Part shown: in pieces, positions 7,393 to 27,959 of the stretch
Layout of the letters: the number at the start of each line of letters is the position of its first letter
Numbering within the stretch: the stretch's first letter is position 1
Assembly: GCF_000829235.1 (NCBI RefSeq)
Contig: NZ_AP012549.1
Location: 2,430,001 to 2,462,000 of the forward strand
Reading direction: 5' to 3'
DNA length: 32,000 nt
Origin: a cyanobacterium endosymbiont of Epithemia turgida isolate EtSB Lake Yunoko
Lineage (GTDB): Bacteria > Cyanobacteriota > Cyanobacteriia > Cyanobacteriales > Microcystaceae
Program-made: the position numbers and the translations under genes
Notes under the pieces: generated by a model
The model's database searches: none
What the model saw: the letters and a program-made list of their open reading frames with translations, nothing else
Told to the model about the DNA's origin: nothing

Positions 7393-8388
7393 ATGCAGGT
7401 TATTTTTTTTGGAACCCCAAAATTTGCCATCGCTACGTTGCAACGGTTGCTAAATCATCCTGATTATAAAGTTATAGGAGTTGTTACTCAACCCGATAAA
7501 CGACGGGGACGGGGTAATCAATTAGTACCCTCTGCTGTCAAAAAAGTTGCTCTACAACATAATTTACTTCTCTGGCAACCTAAAAGAATCAGAAATGCGC
7601 AAAAGATCCTCTCTGAGCTTAGAGAAGCCCAGGCAGATGTCTTTGTTGTGGTGGCTTATGGACAAATATTATCCCCTGAGATCTTATCTATTCCTAAACG
7701 AGGCTGTATTAATGTTCACGGCTCAATTTTGCCCCAATATCGCGGAGCAGCTCCTATTCAGTGGGGTGTATATAACGGGGAACAACAAGTAGGGGTTACT
7801 ACTATGTTAATGAACGAAGGAATGGATACAGGAGATATATTGCTTAAATCTGTGAAATATATTGGATTATTAGATAATTGTCAGCAAATTACTGAAGAAC
7901 TAGCTCAAAATGGGGCAGATTTGTTGTTAAAAACCTTACAAAAACTAGAAGTTGGGGATATTATTGCCACTGCTCAAGATCCAACAGAAGCCACCTACGC
8001 TCCACTAATTCAAAAATCTGACTATAAGATTAATTGGTCTAGATCCGCAATCGCCGTTCATAACCAAGTACGGGGATTTTATCCTAATTGTATCACCAAT
8101 TTCCGTGACCAATCCCTGAAAGTTATGGCGACCATTCCGTTAGAAGATATTGATTGGGAGTCTTTACCCTCTGCGTTTCAACCCCTTCGGCAACAAGCAG
8201 CAAAATTACCAACTTTTAAAGGAACCCCAGGGGAAATCATGAGTAACATTAAAAATTTTGGACCTGTGGTACAGACAGGAGAAGGACTGCTTCTCTTAAA
8301 AGAAGTACAATTATCGGGAAAACGCCGTCAGTCAGGGTGGGATTTTTTAAATGGAACTCGTGTAAACGTGGGAGAAAAATTTTTTTAA
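7393..8388 (+). CDS. fmt: Methionyl-tRNA formyltransferase
   Basis: 331 aa with an ATG start. N-terminal FFGTP..A and HGSILPQYRGAAPIQ motifs plus a C-terminal Fmt domain. Confidence 0.9.
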   Translation: MQVIFFGTPKFAIATLQRLLNHPDYKVIGVVTQPDKRRGRGNQLVPSAVKKVALQHNLLLWQPKRIRNAQKILSELREAQADVFVVVAYGQILSPEILSIPKRGCINVHGSILPQYRGAAPIQWGVYNGEQQVGVTTMLMNEGMDTGDILLKSVKYIGLLDNCQQITEELAQNGADLLLKTLQKLEVGDIIATAQDPTEATYAPLIQKSDYKINWSRSAIAVHNQVRGFYPNCITNFRDQSLKVMATIPLEDIDWESLPSAFQPLRQQAAKLPTFKGTPGEIMSNIKNFGPVVQTGEGLLLLKEVQLSGKRRQSGWDFLNGTRVNVGEKFF

Positions 8389-8646
8389 CTAACTTTAGGA
8401 TGATTTATGGGCTTATATAAATAAGATCCCTTATAATGTTGGTTAGAATTTACTAAACAGCGCATTGTCTCTAAATAAGTTGTAATACAGTAAGGAATAT
8501 CTATAATTATCCAACGGACATTCAATATTTTTTTCTGAGGGGTTAAGTCAATTAGACATAAAAAAACTGTACTCAAAAACAGCCATCAACTTTGTATTAA
8601 TAATGATGATGGCGTTCAAGCACCATATAAATTTATCTTTTTAATT

Positions 8647-8695
8647 CTAGATAATTACCAACCTGAAGTATCCAATCAACTTGGTAATTATCTAG
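8647..8695. repeat. Inverted repeat, 15-bp perfect arms (ctagataattaccaa / ttggtaattatctag), 19-nt loop
   Basis: Arms at 8647-8661 and 8681-8695, verified base by base. It lies about 260 nt downstream of the fmt stop. Confidence 0.7.
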
Positions 8696-10377
8696 GGTTT
8701 GATGAGGATGGAGTAAGATTATCCTTATTGGTAAAGACTGTGTTTTCACTTTTGAGTGGCATTGGCTGACTATACTAGTTAATTATAGCGTTATCTTTTA
8801 GCTTTTTAATCAATCTAGCTCATATCGTGATCGCTTTTTTAAAACAATTATCATCTGTATAATTGCCATTAGATTTAAATTTAAATTAGATCAAAGTATT
8901 CTAATTAGTTTAGCTGATTCTACGGTTAAAAAATTTCGTTAAAGATAAATAAGTTTACTAAACCAAATCCTAAAATCGGAGCAGAAAGACTACTACTGCA
9001 GCCATAGTGTTTATGGCTCCATAGCCAGCGCTTAAAATAAACAGACTGACACTAAGGACATTTCCTATTGAGACTGCTAATCTTTTTCGAGACGACAGAC
9101 AGAATCTTGTAGGGGGATAATTCCTTTTTTTAGCGGATTTTTTTTTTATAAGTAACTATTGAATGATCGATAAAGTAAAAAGTAACTTTGAGAAAAGATA
9201 TTATGGTGAGTAATTAAGCCCGAAGGATACATTTTAAAACCTGAAACAAAATAATCTCTAACTAATAGAATAAAATAACCTCTCAACTACTTCTATCTGA
9301 AAAGACGAAGGGTAAGTGAACAGGAGTTAGATATTATTGACAGATAGACTTAAATATAATCTAGTCCAGAAACATAAAGGGATTGTAAAAAATAAAGGAT
9401 AAAAAATCAACAAAACAGAGGAGATTCTCAAAATAGGAGATAGCTATCGGTACTCTTATAAAGAAATTAATAGCTAAGGCTAAGTTCCATTATACTTGAT
9501 CACTGAATCTTAATGTTCGGACTTTAGCCGCTTATTCGAAATATTTGATAATTTATCTCATGACCAAAAATAAAGTTTCATAGTATAAACATCTAAAAAA
9601 TTACAGTTCTCAGTCAAAAAAGAAAAGTAACATTCAATTAAAAACTTAGAGATAAAGGAAAATAGGACGACAGTTTATTCAAAAGAGTTATATAAAGTCA
9701 AGGTTTTAAAAAATTTTTACAAATAATATTGTTATATTTTATTTTGCTAAGATTATCAAAACTTAAATAAAGCATTATATCTTAAACTTTACTGGCATCT
9801 TATTTTAAAGCAAAAGCTAACAGCTCAAACATAAAAACTATGTCACTGACAGAGAATAACACTAACTAAAATGTTCAATAAGTAGAAAAATTCGGTTGAA
9901 TAATATAAAGATTAGGTATTTTTTAAACATTGTAAAAACAATAAAGAATTGTTGTTTCTAATCAAACACTTAATCAAGTAGTACTGCTGACAGCATAAAT
10001 GACTAAATGCATTGTTGACAATTCTAGCAGGAGCTTAGACCTAATCAACATATTAAAACTTCAAGAAAACCCATAGCCAGTCATAGTTAAATATCCTAAC
10101 TTTGTTAAAGTGATTTCTCTTGCCTGATGGGGTTTCAAAACAGTATGTAAATATCCTGAAATACTATGTTTTTTACATTAATCAAAAACGATATTAACTG
10201 AAACAGATGAAAATAAAATAGGGAAGAAAATAGTTGTAATTCAAAACAAAATCTAAGCAGAAGAAGATTTCATCAAATGGTTAAGAATCATCGCTCCACA
10301 GTATAATAGAAAAACAAGCTCTTGTTATTTTGATAACAATATAAAAATATTTTTAAAAGCTTTAACTGACTGTCACA

Positions 10378-11187: not shown

Positions 11188-11239
11188 ATTTTAGATAGTA
11201 CACATTGACAAATTATGTCAAATGTGTACTATCTAAAAT
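11188..11239. promoter_or_regulatory. 52-bp near-perfect palindrome carrying a consensus TTGACA on each strand (candidate bidirectional promoter or operator)
   Basis: 23 bp pair (11188-11210 with 11216-11239), with one bulged A and a 5-nt loop aatta. Plus strand: TTGACA 11205-11210, N16, TACTAT 11227-11232. Minus strand: TTGACA 11221-11216, N15, TACTAT 11200-11195, pointing at infC 186 nt away. Confidence 0.45.
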
Positions 11240-12319: not shown

Positions 12320-12372
12320 ATAAAATTAACCAGTAAAATTTAAAATCTGAGAATTTTACTGGTTAATTTTAT
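12320..12372. repeat. Inverted repeat, 21-bp perfect arms, 11-nt loop
   Basis: 12320-12340 (ataaaattaaccagtaaaatt) pairs perfectly with 12352-12372 (aattttactggttaattttat). It lies in the middle of the infC-msrA spacer. Confidence 0.75.
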
Positions 12373-13006
12373 GTAACCTATAGATCAATAATCTCTTTTT
12401 AAAATCAATTTTTATTTGTTGTTAATTACACTTTTATATGAAAAAATTACATATGGATATATTTGATAGATATTTTGGATATAAATAGTGAAGTTTTCTA
12501 TACTTGATTTAATACAACTTTTTTTTGCTTGACTATATTTTTCTGAAGTTAAATAAATATATTCTTTCTTAAGAGGGCTACAAACCAATTTTTAAAAATT
12601 TTAATTTGATTGTCTAGTTGACACGTATTTAGTTTGAACTACTAATTTATTGACAGTATTCTGATGAAATTTTTCAATATATATACTAATATTTATGATA
12701 ATTTTATTTTGATAGTTTAGTATATTTTTTATATTAAAAATACTTAATTTTTCTCTAAATTTATTTTCATATCATAGATATGTCAATATACTATGGAAAA
12801 TTTATGTATTTTAAATAAATAGCTGGTTTTAAGCTGATTTAAAAACTTAAAATCAAGCATAGTGTTATTATCATTTATTACTTATATTGTTCCCGTATAT
12901 CTTATAATATTAGCACATAATTCAATTGAGCAATAACACCTTTAGGTTTTTATTAAGCTTCTAAGTAGTCCAAATTACTAAAGGTCCTATGGTAATTAAC
13001 TAAATA

Positions 13007-13052
13007 TTACTACTTCTTAGTAATAAATTATTTTATTACTAAGAAATAGTAA
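13007..13052. repeat. Inverted repeat, 21-bp arms with one mismatch, 4-nt loop
   Basis: 13007-13027 pairs with 13032-13052, with a single mismatch at 13013/13046. It lies about 110 nt downstream of the msrA stop on the minus strand. There is no clear U-tail, so terminator status is uncertain. Confidence 0.65.
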
Positions 13053-13162
13053 ATTTTTCTGAGATAAACAGATATTTTTTATTGACTCAAAAGATAAATA
13101 GTTAATATTTTATTCGAATTTGAAATGAACTTAACACCTGATAGAAAATAATTGGTCAATAG

Positions 13163-13825
13163 TTAATTACCTGTCGTATTGAAACCAGCAGGAAAAATAA
13201 CATTTATTCCTTCCAAACCACAATAACCGTTAGGATTTTTGGCAAGATACTGTTGATGATAAATTTCTGCATAGTAAAATACAGAAGCATCCAAAATTTC
13301 CGTAGTAATTTTGCTATATCCCATTTCAGTTAATGCTTTTTGGTAAACTTCTTTAGAAGCTTCTGCTTGTTGTTTTTGTTCGGGGGAATAAACATAAATT
13401 CCTGAACGATATTGAGTTCCTATATCATTTCCCTGACACATTCCCTGGGTGGGGTTATGACTTTCCCAAAATATCTTTAACAGTTGTTCATAGCTAATAA
13501 TTTTGGGTTCAAAAACTACTAACACTACTTCATTATGACCCGTAAGTCCGGTACAAACTTCTCGATAAGTAGGATTAGGAGTTAACCCGGCTGTGTACCC
13601 TACTGCAGTCGTATACACCCCTTCAAGTTGCCAAAATGTCTGTTCCGCTCCCCAAAAACATCCTAATCCAAACATTGCGGTTTTCATTCTTTCAGGAAAG
13701 GGACATTTAATAGGATTTCCATGAACATAGTGGAAAGTTGAGACGAACATTTTCGCTTCTCGCCCAGGCAATGCTGTCTCAGAAGTAGGCATAGCTGATT
13801 TTTTACCAAATCCAAATAATTTCAT
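13163..13825 (-). CDS. msrA: Peptide-methionine (S)-S-oxide reductase
   Basis: 220 aa with an ATG start. It has the active-site motif GLGCFWG plus YRSGIY and HQQYL. Confidence 0.9.
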
Positions 13826-14182
13826 AGTTTTTTACCTAAATAAATATCCTATTCTTATCTTAAATAGAAAAAATCGCTTCTTCAAAGTTATAGTTAATCA
13901 CTACCACATCCACCACATTTATTGTAACTACTGCTGCAACCATACTCTGAATCTACTCCCCTCTTAAGAGATAGCCAATTTCATCTACACGTTGTTTCTT
14001 CACTACTTAAACTTCCAAAATTAAAGAAATCACTAATATGAGTAACATAATATTCAGGACATTTTTTATATATTTCTTTTGAAGAAGTAGTATTTTTAGT
14101 GATCAAAACTTTTGCCCAGTAAACTAACTTATAAACTTATTTTATTTTCGGTTTAACTTGGATATAATTCTTTATAAGTTAT

Positions 14183-14238
14183 AATGATTCCTAGTATATA
14201 TAATTAATAATTATTAATTATATATACTAGGAATCATT
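14183..14238. repeat. 56-bp perfect palindrome with no loop (cruciform-capable)
   Basis: aatgattcctagtatatataattaataa | ttattaattatatatactaggaatcatt. Every one of the 28 pairs was checked. Only 8 of 56 positions are G/C. Confidence 0.9.
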
Positions 14239-14921
14239 GATTATATAACGTTATTATTGATTTTTATATTAAAACTAATTAATCAGTATTAATATTTATT
14301 TTCTATTTATAAAAAGATCAAAACTATTGTATTTATTCTATGATTTTCCTATAACTATCTGAGATATAAGTAAAATTTTTTTACCTTTACCTATTATTAC
14401 CCCTCAGTAAAAATTAAATCCGTTCCAGGAGTTTGTTCTCCTATGGCTGTGGCTTCGGTTTTAACCCTTCCTTTAACGCTTAGGAATCAAAGGTTAGCTT
14501 TCTTCCTATCCTTTACAGCTTAGAGGACTTAGAACAAACATTGGGGTGGGCTGATATAGTGCTGTTGTTAAAAGTTAGTTCGGTCTACTCCCAAGTGTGG
14601 TAAATTTTGCGACGGTTAAATTTATTAGAGCACGCTTGGGTGGTGGAACAGGCGACTCAATCGGATCAAGTCATTTATGATGAGTTGGAGGAGCAATCAA
14701 ACCTTCTACTTTCTTATTTTTCCTTTCTCCTTTCTCATTATTTACGTCAAGCCTAGCGATCTTCGCAACTCAATTTAACGTCCTATAAACCTTTTCTTTA
14801 TTAGGTTTTAGGATTTTAGCTAAAAAAATATAGCTTTTATTCCAGTCAAAATTATGTCAATTAACTGCCGACTTCGACAATAGTAAATATTGGATATCAT
14901 TAACTTTCTTGAGCAATTCCT

Positions 14922-15974: not shown

Positions 15975-17459
15975 ATGTTAAACCCATTTGAGACAACTAC
16001 TATACTCTTGATCGTTTTGGTCGCCTCGGGGATTTTAACCTGGGGTTATAACAGAACTAAATTCTATGGTAAATCAGTAGTTTTTGCCGAGTTGCAGTCG
16101 TTAGCATTGATAGCTCCCTGGCTAGTATCTTTCGGGTTATTTGCTGCCGGAATTTATCTTAATTTAGTTACAATTTTATTGTTGTTGGTAACTTCATTAG
16201 GAGTATACATTTATTTAGGAAAAAAACTAAGAGCTGAAGGTCAAGACGTCATCCTAAAAAAAAAAGTCGCTGACGGTTTACAAGAACAATGTAAAGCTGA
16301 GAATTCTCAAGTCAATCAATCTGAAAGGACTCATCTTGATTCTAACCTGAAAATTGTAGCAGATACTCTACCTATTCCTAAAGAAGATCTTAGACTGATT
16401 AAAGGCATATTTGGCATTGATACATTTTTTGCGACTGAAACAATTTCTTATCAAGAGGGAGCAATTTTTAAAGGTAATTTACGAGGGGAACCTGACACAG
16501 TTTACCATCACCTTTCAGAAAAATTAAAAGCTCGTTTTTTTGATAAGTACCGTCTCTTTTTAGTAGAAGGAACAGAAAAAAAACCTGTAGTGATAGTGCT
16601 TCCAAGTATTGTTGATCCACGACCAACCACCTTAGTGCAGAAAAATATCGCTTTGGTCCTGTTTGTAGCAACTATTTTAACTAGTTTAGAAGCATCAGGA
16701 ATTCTGTTAGGATTCGATTTGTTCAGTAACTGGAGTCGTTATCTAGAAGTTATACCCCTTAGTTTAGGACTGTGGACAGTTTTAATTGCCCATGAGATTA
16801 GTCATCGTCTTCTTGCAAAACATCACAATGTGCGCCTGAGTGTTCCATTTTTTCTTCCCACCTGGCAAATTGGATCGTTTGGGGCAATTACTCACTTTGA
16901 ATCCTTACTGCCTAACCGAAATGTCTTATTTGATATGGCTTTTGCTGGCTCTGCTGCAGGATGGGGATTTTCTTTAGTATTGCTGACGGTTGGATTGGTA
17001 TTGTCTCATCCAGGAAGTTTGTTTCAAGTACCTACTCAGTTTTTTCAAGGCTCAATTTTAGTTGGCAGTTTAGCTCGGGTGGTGTTCGGAGAAGAACTAC
17101 AAAAATCGCTAATCGATGTTCATCCATTAGCGATTATAGGATGGTTAGGATTAGTTATTAATGCTCTTAATTTGCTTCCTGCGGGTCAGTTAGATGGGGG
17201 ACGAATTGTTCAGGCAATTTATGGAAGAAAAACTGCAAGGAAGACTACAATAGTGTCCTTAATTGTCTTAGGAATTGTAACATTAATTAACCCCCAAAAT
17301 TCTCTTCCTCTTTATTGGGTAATTGTGATTCTTTTTCTCCGACGAGACTTAGAAAGACCAAGTTTAAATGAGTTAACTGAACCTGATGATACCCGTGCTG
17401 CGTTGGGTTTATTAATCATATTTCTTATGTTAATGACTTTAATTCCTTGGTTTTTCTAG
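15975..17459 (+). CDS. M50 site-2 protease family membrane metalloprotease (EGY-like)
   Basis: 494 aa and polytopic. It has an HExxH motif (AHEISHRL) and a second metal-ligand motif NLLPAGQLDGG. Confidence 0.85.
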   Translation: MLNPFETTTILLIVLVASGILTWGYNRTKFYGKSVVFAELQSLALIAPWLVSFGLFAAGIYLNLVTILLLLVTSLGVYIYLGKKLRAEGQDVILKKKVADGLQEQCKAENSQVNQSERTHLDSNLKIVADTLPIPKEDLRLIKGIFGIDTFFATETISYQEGAIFKGNLRGEPDTVYHHLSEKLKARFFDKYRLFLVEGTEKKPVVIVLPSIVDPRPTTLVQKNIALVLFVATILTSLEASGILLGFDLFSNWSRYLEVIPLSLGLWTVLIAHEISHRLLAKHHNVRLSVPFFLPTWQIGSFGAITHFESLLPNRNVLFDMAFAGSAAGWGFSLVLLTVGLVLSHPGSLFQVPTQFFQGSILVGSLARVVFGEELQKSLIDVHPLAIIGWLGLVINALNLLPAGQLDGGRIVQAIYGRKTARKTTIVSLIVLGIVTLINPQNSLPLYWVIVILFLRRDLERPSLNELTEPDDTRAALGLLIIFLMLMTLIPWFF

Positions 17460-26239: not shown

Positions 26240-27109
26240 ATGTGGACACAAATTGCTCAACATATTTCTCAGGCTACTCAACAGGAGTTTCGGACTAAAA
26301 ACCGACGTTCTGTTAATGGAGGTTGTATCAATCAATGTTACTCCTTAATTGGGGATAACATTACCTATTTTGTTAAAATCAACCAAGCTTCCCAGGTAGA
26401 AATGTTTGCGGCTGAAGCATTGGGTTTAAAACAGATATCAAACACTAAGACCATTCGTGTTCCTCAACCAATTTGTTGGGGAATAGCAGAAAAAACTAGT
26501 TACATTGTACTTGAATGGATGAAATTTGGTCGAGGGACTAATCAATTTTGGGAGGAGATGGGACGTAAATTGGGGACGATGCATCACCATCAAGGGGCTG
26601 ATCAATTTGGTTGGGAACAAAACAATACGATTGGTTCTATCTCTCAGATAAATATTTGGACTGATAGTTGGGCAGATTTTTTTGCAGAATACCGTATTGG
26701 TTATCAATTGAAGTTGGCAAGACGACGTGGGGGAAATTTTCCTGACTGTACTCAAGTTGTGGAAATGGTTAGGGAATTATTAGCCCATAGACAACCTAAA
26801 CCTTCTTTGGTACACGGGGATTTGTGGTCAGGAAATGTAGCGGTAACTCAGGAAGGAGAACCGGTTATTTTAGATCCTGCTACTTATTATGGCGATCATG
26901 AAGTTGATCTAGCGATTACAGAACTGTTTGGAGGATTTGGGCGTGGATTTTATAGAAGCTATAATGAAGTTTTTCCTTTAGAAAAAGGTTATCAAAAACG
27001 AAAAATGATTTATAATCTTTATCATATTATAAATCATTTTAATTTATTTGGAGGTGGATATAGAGCCCAGGTTAATCAAATGATTCAGAGAATTATAACT
27101 AATGGATAA
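26240..27109 (+). CDS. Fructosamine/ketosamine-3-kinase family protein
   Basis: 289 aa with an ATG start. It has the kinase motif LVHGDLWSGN, DPATYYGDHEVDLA and an N-terminal NGGCINQCY. It starts 20 nt after the stop of the M16 pseudogene. Confidence 0.85.
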   Translation: MWTQIAQHISQATQQEFRTKNRRSVNGGCINQCYSLIGDNITYFVKINQASQVEMFAAEALGLKQISNTKTIRVPQPICWGIAEKTSYIVLEWMKFGRGTNQFWEEMGRKLGTMHHHQGADQFGWEQNNTIGSISQINIWTDSWADFFAEYRIGYQLKLARRRGGNFPDCTQVVEMVRELLAHRQPKPSLVHGDLWSGNVAVTQEGEPVILDPATYYGDHEVDLAITELFGGFGRGFYRSYNEVFPLEKGYQKRKMIYNLYHIINHFNLFGGGYRAQVNQMIQRIITNG

Positions 27110-27610: not shown

Positions 27611-27892
27611 CTAATTAGAAGAAGTAGTACTGTTTACTAAAGTTCGGAGAATATTAGTTAGTTGAGTCAACTGCTCGTTTGATTCACTTTGCTTATCTAT
27701 TAAGGTTTGTATAGATTCAGTTAAAATAAATATTTGATATCTCTGCTGTTGTATTTGATTTTTTTGTCGTTCTATTTTTTTAGATACATCATTTATTTTT
27801 TTAGCTAATTCTTCTACTGTATTTGTAGTTGCAATTATGGCTTCTCCTATATTTTTTATGATGTTGGTTAATTGCTCAGTTTGATCACTCAT
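27611..27892 (-). CDS. Orphan 93-aa coiled-coil protein, function unknown
   Basis: The track calls GTG at 27910. I prefer ATG at 27892, which has AAGGA (27907-27903) 10 nt upstream. The GTG codon lies inside the 60-bp palindrome. The sequence is heptad-like and Q/E/K/I-rich. Confidence 0.5.
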   Translation of the reverse strand: MSDQTEQLTNIIKNIGEAIIATTNTVEELAKKINDVSKKIERQKNQIQQQRYQIFILTESIQTLIDKQSESNEQLTQLTNILRTLVNSTTSSN

Positions 27893-27899
27893 TATATTG

Positions 27900-27959
27900 T
27901 TTTCCTTCACAAAGCACCGATATTATTATATAATAATATCGGTGCTTTGTGAAGGAAAA
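27900..27959. promoter_or_regulatory. 60-bp perfect palindrome encoding mirror-image sigma70-type promoters (TTCACA-N17-TATAAT on both strands)
   Basis: All 30 pairs were checked (ttttccttcacaaagcaccgatattattat | ataataatatcggtgctttgtgaaggaaaa). Minus strand: -35 at 27953-27948 and -10 at 27930-27925. Plus strand: -35 at 27906-27911 and -10 at 27929-27934. The left arm contains the AAGGA ribosome-binding site of the downstream small ORF. Confidence 0.55.

Follow-up and report, generated by a model that had tools for sequence, protein, structure and literature searches.

Template switching during replication is an already known mechanism, established by experiments on phage T4, E. coli and yeast, and also deduced from comparative genomics (PMC7202029, PMC8794818, PMC5941160, PMC8604942). 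It turns quasi-palindromes into perfect palindromes (PMC7202029). Hairpins can arise and be maintained through it, with compensatory changes of several bases among the results (PMC8794818), and it homogenises the arms of inverted repeats and inverts their spacers (PMC8604942, PMC5941160). The closest described systems are the quasi-palindrome (QP) mutations of the Ripley 1982 model, of the E. coli thyA hotspot and of the lacZ QP reporters of the Lovett laboratory (PMC7202029). There, copying of the nascent or the opposite strand turns an imperfect repeat, or a sequence present once, into a perfect inverted repeat. The locus described below shares with the reporter system multi-nucleotide changes that are exactly templated by the other arm. 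It differs in scale and in the kind of evidence: the reporters have short arms and change few nucleotides, whereas here arms of 17-33 nt appear, from the phylogeny, to have been made or rewritten in one step.

Three further comparisons place the locus. The four-point model (Monttinen and Loytynoja 2022, PMC8794818) accounts for de novo perfect stems, intermediate-free multibase compensation and stem repair, all of which have their likeness here; that study deals with RNA genes under selection, whereas the palindrome of interest belongs to spacer and pseudogene DNA without function in an endosymbiont, so that the mutational process is visible with little selective filtering. Short perfect repeats are over-represented in Proteobacteria and are perfect across species (Lavi et al. 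2018, PMC5941160), as they are here, although arms in the non-coding DNA of E. coli average ~6 bp (PMC5941160) and those considered here span 21-33 bp, at ~10 per 100 kb. Homogenisation of arms and inversion of spacers in yeast (PMC8604942) resemble the loop inversions at two neighbouring repeats, P2 and P4.

The endosymbiont is EtSB, the nitrogen-fixing cyanobacterial spheroid body, or diazoplast, of the diatom Epithemia turgida, and the repeat is a 56-bp perfect palindrome, P1. Its sequence, its relatives and the analogy with the systems above make it probable that P1 arose through one template switch and that later switches have preserved its perfection, selection not being needed.

The locus and its palindrome

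The window, that is, the whole 32,000-nucleotide stretch of the EtSB chromosome (2,794,318 bp) that was analysed, contains the exact protein matches BAP18394-BAP18413; its G+C content is ~33% and its coding density low. The orthologous locus was compared in five lineages: the E. adnata endosymbiont EadnSB, sister of EtSB (CP076462, L083); a JGI metagenome lineage (L093, L094); a Logan lineage (L189); the Rhopalodia gibba endosymbiont (CP067995, L087); and RgSB, the R. gibberula endosymbiont (AP018341, L085). The features on which the argument turns are collected in Table 1.

Table 1. Features of the window (position 1 is its first nucleotide; a/b/a gives left arm, loop and right arm in nucleotides)
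Feature	Position	Strand	Remarks
P4 site, ancestral quasi-palindrome downstream of infC	10060-10130	.	Unchanged in EtSB
P5, perfect inverted repeat 21/11/21	12320-12372	.	EtSB-specific
P7, imperfect 26/4/26 hairpin downstream of msrA	13002-13057	.
msrA, intact	13163-13825	-	Start 358 bp from P1, which lies upstream
P1, perfect palindrome, 56 bp, 28+28, spacer 0	14183-14238	.	AATGATTCCTAGTATATATAATTAATAA / TTATTAATTATATATACTAGGAATCATT
P1 left arm, ancestral	14183-14210	.	Homologues without partner arm in L093, L189, RgSB and the R. gibba endosymbiont
P1 right arm, derived inverted copy of the left	14211-14238	.	EtSB and EadnSB only
P1 right flank, GATTATATAACGTTATTATT	14239-14258	.	Homologous to the sequence directly after the left-arm homologue in palindrome-less lineages
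TP_methylase pseudogene remnant (precorrin methyltransferase-like, B12 pathway)	about 14383-14760	+
M50 protease gene	15975-17459	+	P1 is 1.7 kb upstream
P2, loop-less perfect palindrome, 60 bp	27900-27959	.

The surroundings of P1 are indeed decaying DNA, as the original prediction had it. The TP_methylase remnant retains only residues ~117-240, interrupted by stops and frameshifts, in keeping with the reported decay of the EtSB B12 pathway (PMC5638926), and a deletion of 1,855 bp is located at 14387. The segment that is missing at this junction is kept in EadnSB (L083, about 7600-9460), where, besides a 30/3/30 perfect palindrome, it carries the TP_methylase pseudogene's N-terminal half. Two ORFs, one DUF4327-like and the other intact in RgSB, also lie between P1 and the M50 protease gene.

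Some other elements of the window deserve mention in their own right. Just upstream of msrA, on the - strand, is a 27-aa mini-ORF, MVAAVVTINVVDVVVINYNFEEAIFSI (13860-13943), kept in 6 of 6 endosymbiont lineages with changes mostly at third codon positions and with greater conservation than that of the surrounding spacer; it may encode a small protein not yet recognised or a leader peptide. A 19/14/19 hairpin at 11188-11239, ~190 bp upstream of infC, has invariant arms and a variable loop across the E. turgida, E. adnata and JGI lineages; the Rhopalodia endosymbionts have it in degenerate form. A 15/9/15 perfect inverted repeat at 27002-27040, within the 3' end of the fructosamine kinase gene, is identical in EadnSB. 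A search for tRNA genes in the window found none, and the composition profile, which bears on the idea of a replication origin or terminus, has no skew switch at the palindrome site.

The symmetry of P1 had been claimed to be perfect and spacer-less, with all 28 pairs intact, and it is exactly so: 14211-14238 is the reverse complement of 14183-14210 at 28 of 28 positions, only 3 of the 28 pairs being G-C. As single-stranded DNA, P1 folds at -23.4 kcal/mol, compared with -6.2 +/- 1.8 kcal/mol for shuffled sequence (z = -9.35), with the central AATT unpaired. The frequency of such repeats relative to shuffled expectation was checked within the window by a search for perfect inverted repeats with arms of at least 14 nt and loops of at most 15 nt: the real window holds 7, with arms up to 30 nt, whereas 100 first-order Markov shuffles of it yield a mean of 0.02, with a longest arm of 15 nt. 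P1 is far beyond chance.

Polarity and mirrored changes of the arms

Comparison of P1 between relatives gives the polarity of its arms directly. EadnSB has a perfect 31/1/31 palindrome at the P1 site, with the same outer boundaries (L083:9581-9643). The other four lineages (L093/L094, L189, RgSB and the R. gibba endosymbiont) show no right arm, the left-arm homologue leading directly into the right flank ...CGATAACGT...; in L093, for example, the left-arm homologue AATAATTTCTATTATAGACAATCAATAATTAC is followed after ~7 nt by ...CGATAACGTGATTGTTGATTTT, the homologue of the EtSB right flank. Because these four lineages have the left-arm homologue and the right flank and nothing more, the right arm is the derived one, probably gained in the common ancestor of EtSB and EadnSB, where it replaced ~6-8 nt of ancestral sequence (AAAACTC). 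In AT-rich non-coding DNA the more distant RgSB and R. gibba endosymbionts can be aligned only with uncertainty, and the argument is carried by the closer L093 and L189. In a further endosymbiont genome, CP191494 (L097:about 9300-9950), a run of N covers the palindrome site and the region upstream of msrA.

The centres of the two palindromes differ by a 7-nt stretch (TTGtCAA) with AATT direct repeats on either side, and the right flank of EadnSB is without 20 nt, deleted between ATTGATT direct repeats. Their arms differ at three positions: 4 (G-C in EtSB, A-T in EadnSB), 20 and 24 (both A-T in EtSB, C-G in EadnSB). All three changes are mirrored and none is one-sided, and in neither species is there a mismatch or a G.U pair among the 28-31 pairs. 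The chance of such a mirrored pattern is ~1e-6 (at 5-10% divergence). Pooling P1-P3 gives 6 mirrored changes and 1 one-sided, unresolved one; this arm-by-arm comparison is confined to repeats without the indels of P8. Two of the three changes in P1 are transversion pairs, for which no G.U wobble intermediate is possible.

Divergence of the P1 arms (3/28, or 10.7%) compares with 4.8% in the upstream flank, 9.9% in the downstream flank and 5.0% in the msrA-infC spacer: it is not the sequence that is conserved, only its symmetry. These numbers speak against two suggestions that had been made for the perfection of the repeat. The palindrome cannot be called very young, since it is shared with EadnSB, at ~2-10% non-coding divergence, and three arm positions have since changed on both arms; nor need it be under selection, since its arms diverge at no less than the flank rate (5-10%). 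A third suggestion, an origin by a template switch or by hairpin-templated repair, has fared well, the right arm being a lineage-specific inverted copy of a left arm that already existed.

The polarity of the right arm, the mirrored changes and the many parallel events nearby are direct observations. From such sequence signatures, and from experimental work in other organisms, the following course of events may be proposed. A nascent strand in the ancestor shared by the E. turgida and E. adnata endosymbionts, having just copied the ~28-31-nt AT-rich stretch, would have switched template, either folding back on itself or copying the opposite strand at the fork; it would have copied the stretch as its reverse complement and then returned to the correct template. 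In one step, ~7 nt would thus have been exchanged for an inverted copy, leaving a perfect hairpin-forming repeat. Substitutions in one arm would subsequently generate a quasi-palindrome, and further switches between the arms would either erase the change or copy it across, so that the sequence drifts while the symmetry stays perfect. The loop-less state of EtSB would have arisen by loss of the central 7 nt (TTGtCAA) between the AATT direct repeats. No function would be required anywhere in this scheme, P1 lying between msrA and a dead B12-pathway gene, in DNA on which selection is relaxed. A variant history, in which two independent switches struck the P1 site after divergence of the left arm, would be template switching as well; the shared outer boundaries favour a single origin.

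Parallel events and the density of long inverted repeats

At least 8 further template-switch-like events are located in ~30 kb across these lineages, 2 others in this window; P2-P5, P10, P14 and P15 were each polarised by outgroups. P2 is the second loop-less palindrome of the window. In the JGI lineages it has the form 27/3/27, with the loop in both orientations (TAT and ATA), and in EtSB the loop has been absorbed into the stem. Its outer pair 6 is T-A in the JGI lineages, C.A in EadnSB and C-G in EtSB: EadnSB retains a one-sided intermediate. The quasi-palindrome at the P4 site is common to EtSB, the JGI lineage, RgSB and the R. gibba endosymbiont; in EadnSB it has become a perfect 33/3/33 repeat, in which the inner 22 nt on the right are the reverse complement of the left and the loop has gone from AAA to TTT. 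Spacer inversion is thus seen at P2 and P4 and not at P1, whose loop is 0-1 nt long.

P5 is, to judge by its alignment, another product of template switching: its right arm replaces a non-complementary ancestral sequence that is retained in EadnSB, the JGI lineage and RgSB. P3 (30/3/30), which EadnSB has in common with the JGI lineage, amounts to an insertion of 51 nt when set against the R. gibba sequence, and its two versions differ by 2 mirrored changes; P7 is closer to perfect in EadnSB through mirrored changes (arms of 22-25 bp); and P10 in the R. gibba endosymbiont, together with P14 and P15 in the JGI lineage, are lineage-specific gains. A further count comes from the 29-kb pairwise alignment of EtSB with EadnSB, in which clusters of multi-nucleotide differences were subjected to an arm-overlap test with mirror repeats as the null: 6 of 37 clusters give rise to a perfect inverted repeat of at least 14 nt or lengthen one, and 2 more lie in P1, against a null of 0.

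The density of perfect inverted repeats bears this out. Per 100 kb, and with arms of at least 14 and at least 21 nt, respectively, it comes to 21.9 and 9.4 in EtSB, 28.9 and 13.1 in EadnSB, 28.0 and 12.0 in the JGI lineage, and 19.4 and 9.7 in the R. gibba endosymbiont, estimates that rest on ~25-38 kb per genome and on palindromes that are partly orthologous between genomes. The 20.7-kb sample of RgSB yields 4.8 and 0, and other cyanobacterial loci (297 kb) yield 4.7 and 0. The control loci were reached through MsrA in genome and metagenome contigs, where the matches listed include only distant homologues (at most 76% identity) and no sister endosymbionts. Template switching thus seems, on these sequences, to be unusually common in these decaying genomes, and the abundance of palindromes in Epithemia endosymbionts appears to have gone unmentioned in the genome papers that were searched.

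That so many palindromes should be found invites an explanation that leaves the template-switch origin standing and attributes the persistence of P1, and the build-up of palindromes generally, mainly to lost enzymes that process hairpins or suppress switching (SbcCD, 3' exonucleases, RecQ, RNase HII). The density of repeats with arms of at least 14 nt is 5-6 times that of other cyanobacterial loci, and arms of at least 21 nt are confined to endosymbiont loci. All rhopalodiacean endosymbionts lack RecQ and RNase HII (PMC12903740 Table S2); PhrB is also missing, and RecA, RecJ, MutS/L and RuvABC are present (PMC12903740); in yeast, loss of RNase H2 raises quasi-palindrome mutations (PMC3820800). 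Neither SbcC nor SbcD is mentioned in the text and supplements of PMC12903740 or in PMC5638926 or PMC12377750, insofar as these sources were accessible.

Other observations speak against it. RgSB lacks the same genes, yet its 20.7-kb sample stands at the cyanobacterial baseline, and repair-gene loss is for this reason only a lead. A high non-coding fraction and low G+C might alone let more repeats survive. The premise that palindromes such as P1 are normally unstable was, moreover, overstated for 56 bp. The SbcCD substrates of E. coli (PMC4245961) resemble P1 in their perfect symmetry and in forming hairpins during replication, but they are 246-460 bp long and lethal or recombinogenic; P1 is far shorter than the hundreds of base pairs of an SbcCD-sensitive long palindrome, its centre is AT-rich, and neither instability nor cleavage is documented for it. 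As the principal account, enzyme loss is therefore rather doubtful.

Remaining alternatives and implications

The notion that P1 is a functional hairpin (a terminator, an insulator, a regulatory hairpin or a protein-binding site) whose pairs are kept by purifying selection and compensatory substitution draws on the fact that all its changes between EtSB and EadnSB are compensatory, and on a simple scan that scores it as terminator-like on the + strand. The scan lists it with 3 G-C pairs and the tail CATTGATTAT; a clean T-run is absent, and the structure is positioned upstream of both msrA and the pseudogene and is missing in four related lineages with the same neighbouring genes. Rfam has zero matches at its gathering threshold in the whole window, the palindrome included, and the absence of a convincing -35/-10 arrangement at P1, noted at the outset, was confirmed: no promoter-like geometry was found. 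The arms evolve at or above the flank rate, and of the three changes two, transversion pairs from A-T to C-G, allow no wobble step; neither species shows a mismatch or a G.U pair. P1 adjoins a pseudogene, and similar palindromes occur at many unrelated sites, including the inside of dead genes. On this evidence a functional P1 hairpin is unlikely.

A further point for function comes from P2, which overlaps a ribosome-binding-like motif in a 5' leader and whose intermediate would be a G.U pair in - strand RNA. The left arm of P2 carries the SD-like GAAGGAAAA (- strand) just upstream of the ATG at 27892 of a 93-aa ORF (window 27892-27959); as a hairpin in the 5' leader, P2 would sequester the ribosome-binding site.

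It is very improbable that P1 is, or derives from, a miniature mobile element, inserted from elsewhere as a palindrome and flanked by a target-site duplication. The flanks TATAAGTTAT and TATAACGTTAT do resemble each other, as the original prediction remarked; however, the ATAAC-type motifs on both sides are already in place in palindrome-less lineages and so were not made by an insertion, and the left arm is homologous to resident sequence of the same lineages. No further copy of the arm motif was found in the window, in ~170 kb of related endosymbiont loci, where it is single-copy, or in a viral contig collection. The 56-bp length is also that of telRL, the site of the phage N15 protelomerase; a telRL-like site was considered and dropped, there being no sequence similarity to be seen and the palindrome being absent in close relatives.

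Fold-back chimeras occur in amplified DNA, and to this extent a chimeric fold-back read or another artefact of sequencing or assembly might be suspected; it is effectively excluded for P1, since independent k-mer contigs of SRR29904087 (L001 and L002) carry both arm-flank junctions with identical arms, and since EadnSB, separately assembled, has an orthologous palindrome of different sequence at the same site, present in its own Logan contig as well. L001 and L002 end within 2 nt of the P1 centre (14210/14211), as de Bruijn contigs do at perfect palindromes, and L002 at its full length has its other end at the centre of P2, about 27929. Another Logan contig, L084, stops a few nucleotides short of the centre of the E. 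adnata palindrome. Contigs that end near palindrome centres imply that perfect palindromes break up the short-read (de Bruijn) assemblies of endosymbiont genomes.

Template switching, then, is the reading to which P1 and its neighbours point, and together they form an unusually clean natural record of it: one-step birth of hairpins of 17-33 bp, arms that change in concert, loops that flip and one intermediate caught in its one-sided state. Selection on this DNA is weak, and the pattern therefore reflects mutation rather than function. In reduced genomes, perfect palindromes with 'compensatory' changes should accordingly not count as evidence for functional RNAs or protein-binding sites.

A wider proposition can be put forward tentatively: Epithemia endosymbionts may switch template at a strongly raised rate or be less able to remove palindromes, with loss of RNase HII, RecQ or a hairpin nuclease as possible causes. 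Were this true, complex mutations and new perfect hairpins would come in large part from templated inversions in a bacterium on its way to becoming an organelle, and these endosymbionts would constitute a natural experiment on how the loss of repair genes reshapes the mutation spectrum. If the frequency observed here holds genome-wide, diazoplast genomes could tie specific repair-gene losses to template-switch mutation.
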